Positions 8,109 through 33,681 of a DNA stretch of 40,186 bases are shown piece by piece (within the stretch, counting starts at the first letter, position 1; each line of letters starts with the position of its first letter). The notes beneath the pieces are model-generated. The model did not search any database and was not told the DNA's origin. It saw only the letters and a list, made by a program, of their open reading frames with translations. Location: the IMG/VR virus record IMGVR_UViG_2728369554_000009, positions 1-40,186 of that record; one strand, given 5' to 3'. Made by a program: the position numbers and the translations under genes. This stretch comes from a virus (Duplodnaviria > Heunggongvirae > Uroviricota > Caudoviricetes).

Positions 8109-8155
8109 CAAAATGTTCTTAGATCTATTGATTTCGTGTCTTATGTGGTTTTTAA

Positions 8156-8170
8156 TTACCTTAGAGGTAA
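8156..8170. promoter_or_regulatory. Operator-like palindrome TTACC-N5-GGTAA overlapping SD
   Basis: TTACCTTAGAGGTAA ending 3 nt before ATG 8174; right half is the GAGGT Shine-Dalgarno. Confidence 0.5.
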
Positions 8171-10570: not shown

Positions 10571-11167
10571 ATGATGCCTGCTGAACCTAAAACCTATAAA
10601 CGCAAATCAACGCAATTTAAGCCACTAACAGCAATGCAGGAGGCTTATTGCCAGTCATACATCAAAACGCCTGAAAACCAGACTCAGGCAGCGATTAACG
10701 CAGGATTCTCCCCAAATACAGCGGCAGTTAAAGCCAGTGTCATGATGCGCGATGAACGCATTCAAAAACGGATTGCCGAGTTGATGGAGGAGCGCAACAA
10801 ACGAATGCGCGTCAGTGCTGATTACGTTCTCATGCGCCTGGTGGAGATCGACCAGATGGACGTGATCGACATCCTCAACGACGATGGGAGCCTTAAGCCA
10901 ATCCGCGAGTGGCCGAAAATCTGGCGCACTACGCTTAGCGGCTTTGATCTGTCATCGACCATCATGAACATGAACGAGGATTCGATAGAGACAATCCTCA
11001 AAAAAATTAAATGGCCTGACAAGGTGAAGAACCTCGAACTGATTGGTAAGCACGTCGACGTCAAAGCATTCAAAGAACGCCTGGATGTTAATGTGAATGT
11101 GACAATTGCTGATCGCATAGCAGCAGCCAGGAAGCGACTCAAAGAACGTCAGGATGGTAATCAGTGA
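10571..11167 (+). CDS. terS: Terminase small subunit
   Basis: AYCQSYIKTPENQTQAAINAGFSPNTAAVKASVMMRDERIQKRI resembles Terminase_2-type small subunits; immediately upstream of and overlapping terL. Confidence 0.75.
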   Translation: MMPAEPKTYKRKSTQFKPLTAMQEAYCQSYIKTPENQTQAAINAGFSPNTAAVKASVMMRDERIQKRIAELMEERNKRMRVSADYVLMRLVEIDQMDVIDILNDDGSLKPIREWPKIWRTTLSGFDLSSTIMNMNEDSIETILKKIKWPDKVKNLELIGKHVDVKAFKERLDVNVNVTIADRIAAARKRLKERQDGNQ

Positions 11168-12639
11168 CAGATACAGTGTTATCTCCTGAAGAGCAGTTGA
11201 TCGAGGATATTGCAGGGTTTACTCACGATCCGCTTGGTTATGCCCTCTATGCGTTCCCGTGGGGGGAAGAGGGGACTGAACTGGCACATGCTACTGGCCC
11301 ACGTCAGTGGCAGGCTGATGCGTTCCGAGAGATACGTGATCACCTGCAGAATCCAGAGACGCGCTATCAGCCGCTTATGCTGGCACGCGCTTCTGGTCAC
11401 GGTATTGGTAAATCCGCATTCATCTCAATGCTGATCAACTGGGGCATGTCCACTTGCGAGGATTGTAAGGTCGTGGTGACCGCCAACACCGACAACCAGC
11501 TACGAACGAAGACCTGGCCGGAAATTATCAAGTGGTCGAACCTTGCTATCACGGAAGACTGGTTTACCTGTACCGCTACCGCGATGTACAGCAATGACCC
11601 TGGGCACGACAAGCGGTGGCGTGCTGACGCAATACCCTGGTCTGAGCACAACACTGAGGCGTTCGCCGGACTACACAACGAGCGCAAACGCATCATCGTG
11701 GTGTTTGATGAAGCGTCGAACATTGCGGATCTGGTGTGGGAAGTTGCTGAGGGTGCGCTTACGGACGAAGACACTGAGATTATCTGGGTGGCGTTCGGAA
11801 ACCCGACGCGTAATACCGGACGTTTCCGTGAATGTTTCCGCAAGTATAAACACCGCTGGAAAACTGCGCAGATTGACAGTCGGACGGTGGAAGGTACCAA
11901 CAAACAGCAGTTGCAGAAATGGGTTGATGACTACGGGGAAGACAGCGACTTCGTTAAAATCCGTGTGCGTGGCATATTCCCTGATGCATCTGAATTGCAG
12001 TTTATCCCTACCGGTCTTACTGACGAGGCAATGAAACGGGTGGTAACCGCTGCGCAGGTTGCACATGCTCCGGTGATAATCGGCGTTGACCCGGCATACT
12101 CCGGCGTTGATGACGCTGTGATATACCTGCGGCAGGGGCTACACAGTAAGGTGCTGTGGACTGGCAACAAGACTACCGACGATCTGATTATGGCGAAGCG
12201 TATCGCTGACTTTGAAGACCAGTATCAGGCTGACGCGGTGTTCATCGACTTCGGTTACGGAACCGGTTTGAAGTCAATCGGTGACGGCTGGGGTCGTACA
12301 TGGCAACTTGTTCCGTTCGGTGGCGCGTCTACTGACCCGCAGATGCTTAACAAGCGTGGGGAGATGTTCAACTCATGTAAGACATGGCTGAGGCTGGGCG
12401 GCATGCTGGATGACCAGGAAACTGCAGACGACCTGTCGGCGGCAGAGTACAAAGTTCGCGTGGACGGTAAAATCGTTATCGAACCGAAGGAGGATATCAA
12501 GGAGCGGCTTGGGCGTTCGCCGGGTAAAGGCGATGCGCTACTGCTGACGTTTGCGTTCCCTGTGTCGAAGCGTCTGCGAATTCCCGGTCAGCAGAACCAG
12601 CAAGGCAAGGCCATCACAGATTACGATCCCTATGCTTAA
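11164..12639 (+). CDS. terL: Terminase large subunit
   Basis: 491 aa; Walker A-like ARASGHGIGKS and Walker B-like IIVVFDEAS; GTG start overlapping terS stop. Confidence 0.92.
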   Translation: MTDTVLSPEEQLIEDIAGFTHDPLGYALYAFPWGEEGTELAHATGPRQWQADAFREIRDHLQNPETRYQPLMLARASGHGIGKSAFISMLINWGMSTCEDCKVVVTANTDNQLRTKTWPEIIKWSNLAITEDWFTCTATAMYSNDPGHDKRWRADAIPWSEHNTEAFAGLHNERKRIIVVFDEASNIADLVWEVAEGALTDEDTEIIWVAFGNPTRNTGRFRECFRKYKHRWKTAQIDSRTVEGTNKQQLQKWVDDYGEDSDFVKIRVRGIFPDASELQFIPTGLTDEAMKRVVTAAQVAHAPVIIGVDPAYSGVDDAVIYLRQGLHSKVLWTGNKTTDDLIMAKRIADFEDQYQADAVFIDFGYGTGLKSIGDGWGRTWQLVPFGGASTDPQMLNKRGEMFNSCKTWLRLGGMLDDQETADDLSAAEYKVRVDGKIVIEPKEDIKERLGRSPGKGDALLLTFAFPVSKRLRIPGQQNQQGKAITDYDPYA

Positions 12640-12688
12640 TCCGCTGGTGGGGATAATATCGTTGATATCCTCTGGTGAGGATAAAACA

Positions 12689-12714
12689 AAGCCAGCTCAT
12701 AGGCTGGCTGTTTG
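12689..12714. terminator. Bidirectional intrinsic terminator after terL / after minus-strand moron
   Basis: GCCAGC-TCATAG-GCTGGC hairpin flanked by A-run and T-rich run. Confidence 0.6.
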
Positions 12715-12725
12715 TGACATGTCAC
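12714..12725. repeat. 12-bp perfect palindrome GTGACATGTCAC (copy 2)
   Basis: Abuts bidirectional terminator 12689-12714 between terL and the minus-strand moron. Confidence 0.8.
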
Positions 12726-12729
12726 GGTG

Positions 12730-13062
12730 TTATTTCGGTAGATTGTGTTTGGCATTCGACTCGTCTATCACGTAACGCATTGCAGTTCGACCGAGATTAC
12801 CAGGATCTTCATGCAGACTCACTCGTGCCTTTAGGAGCACACATTCAGCCTTGACATAGTTTGCTGGAATTATTCCTACCTCGGCATTTTTAAATGCCTC
12901 CTTCACCGCCTCACCGTTGTACTGACCGCCAAGCAACTCTGTACATGTCAGGTTGTTATGGATAATTGCAAGGAGATCTTTAATCTCTTCACGCAGGTTT
13001 ACAATCGCCATCGCGGCATTGATAGCTGCGGCATAGCGCTCAGCTGCAGTCTTCTCTTTCAT
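12730..13062 (-). CDS. Hypothetical moron protein (opposite strand to packaging/structural genes)
   Basis: ATG 13062 (MKEKTAAERYAAAINAAMAIVNLREE...) after AAGGTG; own bidirectional terminator downstream; ORF-track start at 13158 less likely (runs through a terminator hairpin). Confidence 0.5.
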   Translation of the reverse strand: MKEKTAAERYAAAINAAMAIVNLREEIKDLLAIIHNNLTCTELLGGQYNGEAVKEAFKNAEVGIIPANYVKAECVLLKARVSLHEDPGNLGRTAMRYVIDESNAKHNLPK

Positions 13063-13073
13063 GATTTTCACCT

Positions 13074-13099
13074 TAAAAAAATGCCCGGACGAACCGGGC
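13074..13099 (-). terminator. Intrinsic terminator (minus orientation) immediately upstream of moron gene
   Basis: GCCCGG-ACGAA-CCGGGC hairpin followed on minus strand by T8; sits between a short hydrophobic ORF and the moron SD. Confidence 0.6.
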
Positions 13100-13803
13100 G
13101 AATGATCAACGGAGTGCCTTCCTTGGCGGGTGATGCAGGGTTTACAGCGCAACGTCATCGGAATGGCGTTCTGCTGTAAAAAGGGCGGTGGTCAGAAGAA
13201 GGAGAACTGCCACCGCCAAAGCTACACGCATTGCCTGGTACTGCCGTATCACGGTCCTAACGTGATTGGGTTGTGGTGGCCGGTGCTGATCTCCGGCTTG
13301 AAATATGCTCAGTGTTAGCTGCCACTCTCTCAAGAGGATATGCGTCATGATTTTCACTGAGTTTGTTGGGTAACCCTGACTTCCGGCTATTCACGCAGCT
13401 TGTCTTCCAACTCAGGCTTATGCCTTACCCATTCCCCCACGTTCACGGGGTGCGCATCAGCCTGCGCATTCACCACAACGGAAAGAGCACTGACTTCGAG
13501 CAGACCTTGGGCCCAGGAACGACGATCAATCTCAATGCTCTTACCTGTTGCATCCTCGTCTCTTCCGAGGTGTCACACCTGATCGCCGGGATGGTGAATC
13601 CCCGTGCGCGGAATAAAACCGCTCGACTTGCACATTCCGGCTACCTGGTTCGTTTGCCCGAGCAAGGGAGGGTGCCCCTTAAACGTATCCAGACCGCTAT
13701 CGGCGCATGTGCCATACGCCGTACTGCTCAAAATAAAAGCTCACTCCACCTGTTCAATTTAACGACAAGCCAGTCAGGTTAGTAACCGGAATGAACTCTT
13801 TGG

Positions 13804-13818
13804 TTACCTGAAAGGTAA
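13804..13818. promoter_or_regulatory. Operator-like palindrome TTACC-N5-GGTAA upstream of portal operon
   Basis: TTACCTGAAAGGTAA ~90 bp upstream of 13909 gene. Confidence 0.5.
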
Positions 13819-13908
13819 TAATTTGTGCGTTAAATGTCAACTACCTACGATAAATAAATCATATGTGGTTAAATTGGTAATAATTTAATTGCGTACGGAG
13901 TCATTGAT

Positions 13909-14115
13909 ATGTGCATGGGTAGCTCACCATCAGTGCCTGCAACACCAGAAGTTCAGGCAGCACCACAGGAGCAGGATGCCGCCGTTGTTGATGCCCGCGA
14001 CGAAGAAACTCGTCGCCGTCGCGCTGCTGCTGGTCGTAGTTCTACGCTGCTTACCGGTTCTCAGGGTGACACATCAACCGCTAATACCAGCGGTAAAACG
14101 CTGCTTGGTCAGTAA
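13909..14115 (+). CDS. Small hypothetical protein upstream of portal
   Basis: 68 aa; translation-initiation region ACGGAGTCATTGATATG nearly identical to that of the portal gene. Confidence 0.4.
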   Translation: MCMGSSPSVPATPEVQAAPQEQDAAVVDARDEETRRRRAAAGRSSTLLTGSQGDTSTANTSGKTLLGQ

Positions 14116-14129
14116 CCGGAGTCATTGAA

Positions 14130-15809
14130 ATGGCGGAAACAACTAAAGAGCGATTGAACAAACAGTTCGCACAACTTGAAAGCGAGCGTCAGTCGTTCGA
14201 GCCGCACTGGCGCGAGTTGAGTGATTACATCAACCCGCGTGGTTCCCGCTTTCTGACTTCTGAGGTCAACCGTAACGATCGACGCAATACACGCATTATT
14301 GATTCGACCGGGACTATGGCGGCGCGCACTCTCGCCAGCGGCATGATGTCAGGCATCACAAGCCCCGCGCGTCCGTGGTTTCGCCTGGCTACGCCAGATC
14401 CTGAAATGATGGATTATGGCCCTGTTAAGTTGTGGCTTGAGGCGGTGCAGAACCGCATGAACGATATGTTCAATAAGTCGAATCTCTATCAGTCGCTGCC
14501 GCAGTTATACGGAAGCCTCGGCACATACAGCACTGGTGCAATGGCAGTGCTGGAGGATGACGAGGACATCATTCGCACAATGCCATTCCCGATAGGCAGT
14601 TACTACCTGGCTAACTCACCTCGTGGCAGTGTGGACACCTGTTTTCGCAAGTTCTCTATGACTGTTCGTCAGCTTGTTCAGGAGTTCGGGCTAAATAACG
14701 TCAGCGAATCCGTAAAAAGCATGTGGGAAAGCGGCACCTACGAGAAGTGGATTGAAGTGATGCATTCGGTTTACCCGAACATTGACCGCGATACATCGAA
14801 GCTGGATAGCAAGAACAAGCCATTCAAATCGGTTTATTACGAGGTTGGTGGCGATAACGACAAGTTGTTGCGTGAGTCCGGATTCGATGAGTTTCCAATT
14901 ATGGCTCCGAGCTGGGAAGTTAACGGCGAAGATGTTTATGGATCATCATGCCCGGGTATGCTGGCGCTTGGACCTGTTAAGGCATTGCAGCTTCTCCAGA
15001 AGCGCAAGTCGCAGTTGATTGATAAAGCCACCAATCCGCCGATGGTTGCTCCGACTTCCCTCAAGAATCAGCGTGCCTCCCTTCTTCCTGGCGACATCAC
15101 GTATATCGATCAGATTACTGGTCAGGATGGTTTCAGGCCTGCTTATCTGGTTAACCCCAGTACAGCAGATTTGGTGGCAGACATTCAGGACACCCGTCAA
15201 ATCATTAACAGCGCCTACTTTGTCGATCTGTTCATGATGTTGCAGAACATCAATACCCGCTCGATGCCTGTTGAAGCGGTGATCGAAATGAAAGAAGAAA
15301 AACTTCTGATGTTGGGGCCGGTTCTGGAGCGTCTGAACGACGAATGTCTTAATCCTCTCATTGACCGCGCTTTCTCGATGATGGTGCGTAAAAACATGCT
15401 GCCGCCACCGCCTGACGCGATGGAAGGTATGCCCCTGAAGGTCGAATACATTTCCGTCATGGCTCAGGCGCAGAAGTCTATCGGCCTGTCCAGTCTGGCG
15501 TCCACGGTTAACTTCATTGGTCAACTTGCGCAAGCGAAACCAGAAGCTCTCGACAAACTCAACGTTGATCAGGCGATCGATGCATTCGCTGATATGTCCG
15601 GAGTGTCTCCAACCGTCATTGTTCCGCAGGAACAGGTTGAGCAGGCTCGCCAGCAACGGGCACAGCAACAACAGCAGCAACAAATGATGGCGATGGGGAT
15701 GGCGGCGGCACAGGGTGCCAAGACGCTAAGCGAAGCTAAAACTTCGGATCCGAGTGTTTTGTCAGCTATGGCGAATGCAGTTAGTGGTCAGGGTGGGCAA
15801 TCACAATGA
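14130..15809 (+). CDS. Portal (head-to-tail connector) protein, T7-like
   Basis: 559 aa; downstream of terL; Q-rich C-terminus QQRAQQQQQQQMMAMGMAAAQGA resembles the T7 gp8 tail (recalled from memory). Confidence 0.88.
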   Translation: MAETTKERLNKQFAQLESERQSFEPHWRELSDYINPRGSRFLTSEVNRNDRRNTRIIDSTGTMAARTLASGMMSGITSPARPWFRLATPDPEMMDYGPVKLWLEAVQNRMNDMFNKSNLYQSLPQLYGSLGTYSTGAMAVLEDDEDIIRTMPFPIGSYYLANSPRGSVDTCFRKFSMTVRQLVQEFGLNNVSESVKSMWESGTYEKWIEVMHSVYPNIDRDTSKLDSKNKPFKSVYYEVGGDNDKLLRESGFDEFPIMAPSWEVNGEDVYGSSCPGMLALGPVKALQLLQKRKSQLIDKATNPPMVAPTSLKNQRASLLPGDITYIDQITGQDGFRPAYLVNPSTADLVADIQDTRQIINSAYFVDLFMMLQNINTRSMPVEAVIEMKEEKLLMLGPVLERLNDECLNPLIDRAFSMMVRKNMLPPPPDAMEGMPLKVEYISVMAQAQKSIGLSSLASTVNFIGQLAQAKPEALDKLNVDQAIDAFADMSGVSPTVIVPQEQVEQARQQRAQQQQQQQMMAMGMAAAQGAKTLSEAKTSDPSVLSAMANAVSGQGGQSQ

Positions 15810-30023: not shown

Positions 30024-30103
30024 ATTTACATCGCACTCCTCTTGTGCCATAGTAATCGGGCACTGGCAAAATCCAGTGCCGGGATTGGTCTCCCGGATTA
30101 CTA
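30009..30103. repeat. Left arm of perfect 95-bp inverted repeat (antirepressor leader)
   Basis: Reverse complement of 33103-33197 with no mismatches by eye; includes palindrome 30009-30023, -35-like TTTACA and two hairpins. Confidence 0.85.
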
Positions 30104-30290
30104 CAGAGGCACATATGCCGCATAAGCGGTTTTTTTATGTGTAAAGCGCACCTATTCTATGGTGGGCTGTGTGGGGGCACCGAAAGGTGCGCCGGGTTCC
30201 TTTGTAGCCGGTAAGACCAACTCTGCACAGTTCACCACCATCTGATTGGTCTCAGCGGTGGTGATTAACCTAACTACAAAGGTGATCGCC
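30024..30290 (+). ncRNA. Structured 5' leader / candidate sRNA upstream of Bro-N antirepressor gene
   Basis: Hairpins at 30059-30080, 30079-30096, terminator hairpin+T7 at 30118-30136, GAAA-tetraloop hairpin 30177-30190, 8-bp-stem hairpin 30232-30264; mirrored with compensatory changes in the AntA leader. Confidence 0.45.
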
Positions 30291-32911: not shown

Positions 32912-33182
32912 GATGGCGTCTCCACTTAGCGAATTACATCACCACCGCTGAGACCAATCAGATGGTGGTGAACTGAACGGAGTTGGTCTTACCGGCCTAA
33001 GTGGTACCGGCGTCCTTTCGGACCCCCATTCAGCCCACCATAATTCTGGCATGACTGTGCTATACGCATAAAAAAACCACGTCTGGCGTGGTATGCGCCA
33101 CTTAGTAATCCGGGAGACCAATCCCGGCACTGGATTTTGCCAGTGCCCGATTACTATGGCACAAGAGGAGTGCGATGTAAAT
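32912..33182 (-). ncRNA. Structured 5' leader / candidate sRNA upstream of AntA antirepressor gene
   Basis: Mirror of the Bro-N leader: same hairpins, terminator stem CCACG-CCAGA-CGTGG+T7 (33076-33090), GTCC-GAAA-GGAC (33012-33023), conserved hairpin 32939-32971. Confidence 0.45.
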
Positions 33183-33577: not shown

Positions 33578-33681
33578 TATCTATTCGTATTTACAGCCTT
33601 TCTATCCATATGTGGTTTTCCAGGTAATAGAATAACCAGATATGCGGCGCAACGGGTGCTGCGACTATCTGGAGATTTAAC

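Follow-up and report, generated by a model that had tools for sequence, protein, structure and literature searches.

On the minus strand of a 40,186-nucleotide (nt) stretch of tailed-phage DNA (IMG/VR record IMGVR_UViG_2728369554_000009; the whole stretch is called the window), a conserved, pseudoknotted RNA, named module A, was found within the interval 13063-13908. The window is a phiV10/epsilon15-like (Uetakevirus) prophage, and the interval is flanked by the large terminase gene and by a small gp3-like gene with the portal operon. Nearly every base of the interval is conserved minus-strand RNA structure. Read along that strand, the order is a predicted promoter with its operator, a 5' leader, module A, cassette B, element C (an RNA in a slot that holds a transfer RNA (tRNA) in phiV10), hairpin H, terminator T1, a conserved spacer, terminator T2, and the ribosome-binding site (RBS) of a moron gene (Table 1). 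The same array was present in the relatives phiV10, BUCT554, and Tyrion; the order was A-B-C-T1 in mEp460, promoter-A-B-H-T2 in Stenotrophomonas phage BUCT708, and promoter-A-B-C in Klebsiella phage SopranoGao. A preliminary description had offered "debris of a lost module" as one explanation of the interval; a conserved, ordered array was found in its place. The chances are about even, in our estimate, that the interval is transcribed from the minus strand as a non-coding RNA unit and doubles as the moron gene's leader, an estimate made jointly with the antitermination role proposed for module A below.

Module A is about 170-185 nt in size (167 model positions) and contains five helices plus a pseudoknot, with invariant blocks between variable hairpins in its alignment. 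Covariation was examined in 43 sequences of less than 94% mutual similarity, and the structure tested consisted of P1, the P2 base, P4, P5, the loop-to-downstream pseudoknot, and an invariant second pseudoknot. Paired cells amounted to 97.2%; both sides had changed in 12 of the 29 pairs (99 cells), and none of 500 shuffles was as good. When the structure was slid along as a control, 24%-49% of the cells paired. One covarying pair of the pseudoknot was C-G in 39 and A-U in 4 of the 43 sequences and was never broken, and the switch from CACC:GGUG to AACC:GGUU recurred in further lineages. Approximately 139 G-U cells would become A-C mismatches if the other strand were folded, and the tRNAs found near 44 of 127 loci were all on the same strand as module A, with none opposed; the folded strand is therefore the minus strand of the window. 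The data establish module A as a structured-RNA family that has at least one covarying pseudoknot.

The interval was 100% identical to the corresponding DNA of E. coli BCE049 (NZ_CP042250.1). The whole of it was present in only 2 of 5,426 complete E. coli genomes, and part of it, mostly the module A stretch, was matched in 796 of them. By megablast, only 13534-13910 was common to phiV10-type phages, and a core (13560-13722) showed approximately 80% identity to P1/P7, where it lies between tRNA-Ile(CAU) and ban. Viral contigs scanned with the invariant 19-mer of module A yielded more than 120 loci. The covariance model identified a single copy in the window (150.9 bits), module A being present once per genome, and recovered full-length copies in phages BUCT708 and SopranoGao. 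Among 185,579 species genomes, full-length copies were found in 22 Enterobacterales species and in one short contig binned as a Bacillota metagenome-assembled genome. Carriers include Uetakeviruses, P1/P7, SfV-like phages, Stx2 phages, and a Stenotrophomonas phage. No Rfam 15 family matched 13270-13732 (module A, cassette B, and element C), either at the gathering score or at E values up to 10, nor did any match these three elements in the homologous parts of 12 related loci; over the region as a whole, the Rfam scans returned only a weak DicF match (see below) and noise. The literature, searched by sequence and by concept, yielded no description of module A.

Five contexts of module A were read in detail, and in four of them it stands in a repressor-linked operon upstream of co-oriented genes. 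The layout in mEp460 is the cI terminator, two TTGC-N7-GCAA operator-like sites that match one in the cI-cro region, a promoter (TTGCAT-17-TATCTT), A-B-C-T1, and the early-left genes, the first of which is preceded by T1. BUCT708 is laid out in the same way as mEp460, a cI-like gene and a promoter coming directly before module A. In P7, it is located in the C1-controlled ban operon (Op(ban)), far from the promoter. An early-leader position is supported by mEp460, BUCT708, P7, and the operator placed over the predicted -10 in the window.

Partial copies of module A were also observed. Epsilon15 (locus L231, 1433-1545) carries the 5' domain only, at the place where its record marks an "RNaseIII" site, and two viral contigs (L187, 3180-3265; L220, 7063-7210) carry only the 3' domain with P4, the pseudoknot, and P5. 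Because such half-copies exist, module A consists of two domains and is able to decay or to be modular.

Cassette B, immediately downstream of module A, is defined by a closing stem in which at least eight of nine positions paired in 109 of 111 copies, with compensatory stem types such as AAGAGCAUU/AGUGCUCUU, GAGAGCAUU/AGUGCUCUC, and GAGCGCACU/AGUGCGCUC. The inserts enclosed by the stem ranged from 33 to 128 nt, some with T-arm-like hairpins, and the cassette B of the window folded at -24.7 kcal/mol (z = -2.3). Canonical tRNA T-arm hairpins, e.g., GGGUUCGAAUCCC, were stacked on the long closing stem in some inserts (L002 2390-2450, which is BUCT554, and L130, L142, L214, L213, and L219); ARAGORN called no tRNA in BUCT554, the only T-arm-bearing locus scanned. 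The motif GUGCUCUUU was considered as a boxA/nut site and set aside: its strand is paired and covarying in cassette B, and the motif also occurs in lytic phages.

Both ends of element C were kept in 81 of 112 relatives, with total lengths of 68-218 nt, and the interior was hypervariable, structured, and free of codon-position bias; its hairpin changes relative to L191 and L206 were compensatory. In phiV10, the slot of element C holds a tRNA-Arg(UCU) with the same leader (..CGUU followed by GUGG) and the same trailer hairpin, H. Element C is read as a user of tRNA processing signals because this tRNA occupies the same slot with the same leader and trailer, and the RNA would accordingly be handled by tRNA processing. 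Hairpin H follows the tRNA-Arg in phiV10, element C in the window, BUCT554, and Tyrion, and cassette B in BUCT708. No tRNA was found in the window by ARAGORN, and the Rfam tRNA model (E up to 10) had no match in 12600-14150. Two other roles for element C were rejected. As an antisense RNA to the downstream transcript, its best duplex (-45.9 kcal/mol) was comparable to those of shuffles (-44.6 ± 3.2 kcal/mol). The ends of element C form an inverted repeat, and a miniature transposable element was discarded in view of the fixed leader junction, the slot shared with a tRNA, and the hypervariable interior.

The place of module A as the 5'-most member of a processed RNA array, its pseudoknots and highly conserved unpaired nucleotides, and the lack of a linked protein would fit a self-cleaving ribozyme or another processing element that frees the downstream tRNA-like RNAs. 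We consider this unlikely: no known Rfam ribozyme class was matched, the 5' and 3' domains described above occur alone, and host RNase P and RNase E would suffice for processing.

A 40-nt stretch that covers the last part of cassette B and the first part of element C (13451-13493) was 95%-100% identical in very different phages and unannotated in all of them, including HK620, mEp460, HK629, IME10, the 72.6-kb IME11, Klebsiella phages of approximately 160 kb (Magnus, cp21, and UPM 2146), and phiEt88. The stretch 13470-13543 also showed an 80%-85% match to Phapecoctavirus-type phages of approximately 150 kb.

The absence of a protein-coding gene from 13100-13900, as noted in the preliminary description, was confirmed. 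Eight open reading frames (ORFs) from both strands, including the flanking genes, were searched, and apart from the two real flanking genes none had a Pfam match and PHROGs gave weak matches only. A 60-codon frame without a start codon (13572 to 13393) does exist, with an in-frame TGA (13575-13573) before it, and had been taken as a decayed or recoded gene. Using 59 residues of it, tblastn matched three phage records, with an intact gene beneath none of them. The second half of the frame opens at a GTG within the 40-nt stretch 13451-13493; before this GTG (13476), which opens the last 29 codons, no Shine-Dalgarno sequence was seen by eye. Downstream of the GTG, the frame ran for 9 to more than 100 codons of unrelated sequence when 112 distinct relatives were compared. 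Compared with the closest relatives (L191 and L206), conservation continued straight past the stop codon, and several compensatory changes preserved one hairpin underlying the frame; set against the closest relative, the differences were spread 5/4/6 over the three codon positions. The variable frame length and the lack of codon-position bias likewise ruled out a small protein started from the GTG of element C.

The 29-codon hydrophobic ORF on the minus strand (13231 to 13142, reading MRVALAVAVLLLLTTALFTAERHSDDVAL) is also present as described. Its middle is GGCGGUGGCAG-UUCUCCUUCUU-CUGACCACCGCC followed by CUUUUU, a hairpin, T1, that folded at -25.6 kcal/mol (z = -4.76). T1 and T2 both have the GC-rich hairpin directly before a U-run that defines an intrinsic terminator; T1 had been left unreported by the terminator scan on account of its 11-nt loop. 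Related loci yielded 25 distinct homologous hairpins with a U-run and compensatory stem changes (GGCGGUGAU..AUCACCGCC, GGCGGUACCAG..CUGGUACCGCC, and GGCGGUGCCAG..CUGGCACCGCC), and an ATG-started ORF across the hairpin in only 3 of the 25. In phiV10, the equivalent frame contains an in-frame UGA; in BUCT554, the ATG is lost, and the hairpin loop carries an indel. Selection thus acts on the RNA hairpin, since the stems compensate while the ORF is kept in so few variants, and the hydrophobic peptide is simply the translation of the GC-rich T1 stem.

The two frames had been read as a type I toxin-like or leader peptide and as a gene remnant. In favor of this reading, the two frames are real and the peptide has a hydrophobic character; the weight of the comparisons above, together with the lack of protein relatives, makes this reading very improbable. 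For a type I toxin-antitoxin pair in particular, a small hydrophobic ORF conserved among relatives was not found; as regards an overlapping or adjacent antisense RNA with a promoter of its own, the scan reported no promoter on the plus strand. The frames are by-products of RNA structures and no more than chance would provide: they are unremarkable in length because the 5 kb around the interval contains 57 ORFs of at least 25 codons.

T1 also matched the DicF model (RF00039) at 25.7 bits (E = 0.0057), below the gathering cut-off of 48 bits. DicF, a small RNA, blocks cell division through base pairing to ftsZ mRNA, and in the Qin prophage it has an early-left operon position, as T1 has in mEp460. 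T1 and DicF share the UUUGGCGGU..CAG stem start, the U-run, and a C/U-rich loop resembling an anti-Shine-Dalgarno sequence. A DicF-type function for T1 is nevertheless quite improbable, in that none of the 12 related loci scanned matched at the gathering cut-off, including the four with a T1 homologue (L001, L002, L012, and L127), and the loops vary among the 25 homologous hairpins, with only a short YCCUU core recurring.

The loops of T1 (13206-13196) and of module A P2 (approximately 13665-13660) share a C/U-rich motif, YCCUUG(AA), which resembles the 16S anti-Shine-Dalgarno sequence. The example CCCUUGAAG was present in the T1 of phiV10 (L001) and Tyrion (L127) and in the P2 of L031. The loop of hairpin H, UUAGGAC, looks complementary to the same motif.

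Downstream of T1, the spacer was approximately 80% conserved in four Uetakeviruses, and its substitutions were non-synonymous in every frame read by eye. T2, folding at -13.1 kcal/mol, is the terminator noted earlier (stem GCCCGG/CCGGGC, 13099-13083, then A and U7) and was reported by the scan; the epsilon15 record annotates it as a rho-independent terminator, and a near-identical T2 closes the BUCT708 unit. The Shine-Dalgarno sequence of the moron gene, AAGGUG, directly abuts the U-tract of T2 and is followed by the ATG at 13062, as stated before. The moron protein matches phrog_27507 along its full length (E = 3.5e-75), and the same RBS with the same spacing precedes unrelated cargo genes in BUCT554, Tyrion, and phiV10. 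Neither the scan nor reading by eye revealed a promoter for the moron between T1 and T2. The earlier suggestion of a leader or attenuator for the moron holds in the form of a non-coding leader with terminators upstream of the gene; the leader peptide falls away, its ORF not being conserved. From an ATG at 13158, a frame running through T2 joins the moron to form a 142-codon ORF (13158-12730, minus strand); the extension is not conserved, and phiV10 has a stop within it.

Table 1. Features in and around the interval 13063-13908 (coordinates of the window)
Feature	Position	Strand	Details
Large terminase gene	11164-12639	+	Flanks interval
Moron gene and RBS	12730-13074 (gene 12730-13062)	-	RBS AAGGUG 13074-13069; ATG 13062
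Terminator T2	13075-13099	-	GCCCGG, loop UUCGU, CCGGGC, then A + U7
T1-T2 spacer	13100-13177	-	Conserved, non-coding
29-codon ORF	13142-13231	-	Not a gene
Terminator T1	13178-13217	-	Stem GGCGGUGGCAG with CUGACCACCGCC, then C + U5
Trailer hairpin H	13248-13266	-	AUCACG, loop UUAGGAC, CGUGAU
Element C, tRNA-slot RNA	13270-13479	-	Closing stem GUUGUGGUG (13479-13471) with CACCACAAC (13278-13270)
Element C 3' hairpin	13297-13279	-	Loop AGAUCAGCA, complementary to 5' hairpin loop
Element C 5' hairpin	13467-13452	-	Loop GGCUGA
60-codon open frame	13393-13572	-	Not a gene; lies over module A P5, cassette B, and the 5' portion of element C
Cassette B	13483-13542	-	Closing stem AAGAGCAUUGA (13542-13532) with UCAGUGCUCUU (13493-13483); variable insert
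Module A	13548-13732	-	Conserved pseudoknotted RNA; covariation, covariance model
Module A P5	13570-13566 with 13558-13554	-	Loop GAAGAGA
Module A pseudoknot	13596-13593 with 13579-13576	-	CACC with GGUG
Module A P4	13602-13599 with 13591-13588	-	Loop UUCACCA
Module A P3		-	Variable hairpin
Module A invariant block	13645-13627	-	GGUAGCCGGAAUGUGCAAG
Module A P2 base	13693-13689 with 13648-13644	-	
Module A P1	13721-13714 with 13708-13701	-	
5' leader of transcript	13733-13803	-	Conserved only among Uetakevirus-type copies
Operator palindrome	13818-13804	-	TTACCTTTCAGGTAA; overlaps -10
Promoter and operator (predicted)	13804-13840	-	-35 TTGACA 13840-13835; 17-nt spacer; -10 TACCTT 13817-13812
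Small gp3-like gene and portal operon	from 13909	+	Flanks interval
TTACCN5GGTAA sites	4966, 5028, 5740, 5788, 6125, 8094, 8156, 10539, 10557, 13804, 29423, 30009, 32168, 33183, 33563		

Upstream of module A, the sequence indicates a sigma-70-type promoter whose -10 is overlapped by an operator that recurs throughout the prophage. The -35 and -10 hexamers were kept while the spacer varied among the window, phiV10, BUCT554, and Tyrion, and the fold of the 5' leader was not significant (z = -0.65). With 15 occurrences in the window where 0.8 would be expected, the palindrome TTACCN5GGTAA has the look of a scattered set of operators serving a single repressor, comparable to that of P1. A repressor site is marked at the corresponding position in the epsilon15 record.

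Several of the TTACCN5GGTAA sites adjoin TTGACA- or TTGATT-type -35 boxes. Elsewhere in the window, two inverted units of isrK and C4 antisense RNA (30060-30242, plus strand; 32961-33146, minus strand) resemble the P1/P7 immI immunity module, with operators (30009 and 33183) approximately 37-50 nt upstream of them. A further motif, ATATGTGGTT, was found at 13859-13868 and 33610-33619, with the variant ATGTGGTT at approximately 8139-8146, all on the plus strand before plus-strand genes. The two copies are each set 40-50 nt downstream of an operator (those at 13804 and 33563), and the variant lies just upstream of the operator at 8156. The motif may be an element of plus-strand promoters.

In the mechanism that we propose, release of the repressor would allow the promoter to fire, and cassette B and element C (a tRNA in relatives) would be cut from the transcript like tRNA precursors. 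Most transcripts would end at T1 or T2, and the moron would be translated only from those reading through both; this dependence on read-through is suggested because no separate promoter was found and the RBS is fused to T2 before different cargo. Module A itself would work in cis as a leader RNA, with the transcribing RNA polymerase or the termination step as its target, either letting transcripts pass the downstream terminators or shielding the long untranslated RNA from Rho. By analogy, an antitermination-type leader within an RNA operon, with a job like that of the put RNA of phage HK022, is a guess that could equally well prove right or wrong.

Several observations weigh against this mechanism or the fold beneath it. 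The 19-nt invariant block was itself the search pattern, and its invariance is therefore partly built in. RNAalifold favored an alternative long-range pairing of this block with the 5' strand, so that module A may adopt another fold or act as a switch, and the single-sequence fold of module A was unremarkable (z = -0.82). The promoter, the RNA ends, and the processing were all inferred; the -10 matches the consensus at only three of six positions, for which reason the promoter escaped the generic scan. No promoter directly precedes module A in P1/P7, and no terminator before ban was seen in the 64 nt after module A. Module A occurs once per genome versus put at both PL and PR in HK022, and it is unlike put RNA in size and architecture. 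Finally, a strong terminator is kept in the unit, even in the Stenotrophomonas phage, which fits a stand-alone RNA gene equally.

Module A may instead be a stable, processed, trans-acting RNA, which might scaffold a conserved host factor or act on it as a sponge or decoy, a reading we hold only tentatively. Put as a stand-alone view, in which A, B, and C form an RNA gene ending at T1/T2 and the moron is unrelated cargo, it comes out as nearly as likely. A promoter- and terminator-bounded unit that moves as a block between unrelated phages, long invariant single-stranded blocks suggestive of a conserved partner, co-transcription with genuine tRNAs, and the single copy per genome are all consistent with it. 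Against it, no partner protein was linked in any context, the conserved block includes the RBS of the downstream gene, and four of the five contexts place module A in a repressor-linked operon ahead of co-oriented genes. A more speculative combination, possible but doubtful, is that module A belongs to an undescribed functional RNA class (a protein-independent antiterminator, a Rho-blocking leader, or a catalytic RNA) and that cassette B and element C are tRNA-shaped scaffolds with hypervariable cargo loops that work as decoys or guides.

The interval is a phage early-leader and tRNA-linked RNA operon, and the module A family, with its strong covariation, matches nothing in Rfam or the searched literature. 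With it, the early regulatory regions of temperate phages would gain a pseudoknotted RNA with strong covariation. It is carried by textbook phages such as P1/P7 and Stx2 phages, and part of the interval, mostly its module A stretch, is matched in 796 of 5,426 complete E. coli genomes. If module A controls read-through, this would explain the expression of lambdoid phages lacking an N-like gene and of Uetakevirus morons; no N-like gene was seen in the loci read. The tRNA-slot elements suggest that phages reuse tRNA processing signals for other RNAs.

Public records place "hypothetical proteins" on the sequence of module A, cassette B, element C, or T1, in some cases on the opposite strand: PhiV10p04 (L001, 1985-2236), L002 2229-2480, L127 1616-1777, and mEp460 gp36/gp37 (L126, 2180-2733). 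These are probably mis-annotations of conserved RNA sequence, and recognition of module A would correct such entries or blanks (PhiV10p04, the BUCT554 and Tyrion ORFs, and mEp460 gp36/gp37).

Among known systems, the proposed role of module A is closest to that of HK022 put (putL/putR), a processive antiterminator that acts in cis as nascent RNA and needs no dedicated protein; the activity of module A is a prediction. putL lies just downstream of PL (PMC9378689), that is, after a repressor-controlled promoter and ahead of terminators, and module A has the same position in mEp460-type phages and BUCT708; a place after a repressor-controlled early promoter and before terminators was found in mEp460, BUCT708, and the window. 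The put RNA is approximately 70 nt long, with two stem-loops, a V shape, and a short triplex (PMC9378689). Module A, with its 167 model positions, five helices, and pseudoknot, shares no sequence similarity with put and is not considered a put homologue, given that size and those two stem-loops. T1 is likened to DicF by stem start, U-run, C/U-rich loop, and a weak model match, and differs from it in scoring below the gathering cut-off and in a loop that is not conserved.

The C4 antisense RNA of P1/P7 (RF01695) is likewise a phage non-coding RNA; it is part of an operon under repressor control, where it precedes the genes that it affects, and it is released by tRNA-type (RNase P) processing. 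Two isrK-C4 copies are present elsewhere in this prophage, whereas nothing in 13063-13908 matches the C4 model, and the complementarity between the interior of element C and downstream sequence is no better than in shuffles. With respect to the phage tRNA cassette, element C is rejected by ARAGORN and the Rfam tRNA model, lacks an anticodon arm, and is hypervariable over 68-218 nt; on the other hand, it shares the slot, leader, trailer hairpin, and strand of the phiV10 tRNA-Arg(UCU), and its acceptor-like closing stem and two arm-like hairpins give it a tRNA-like outline.

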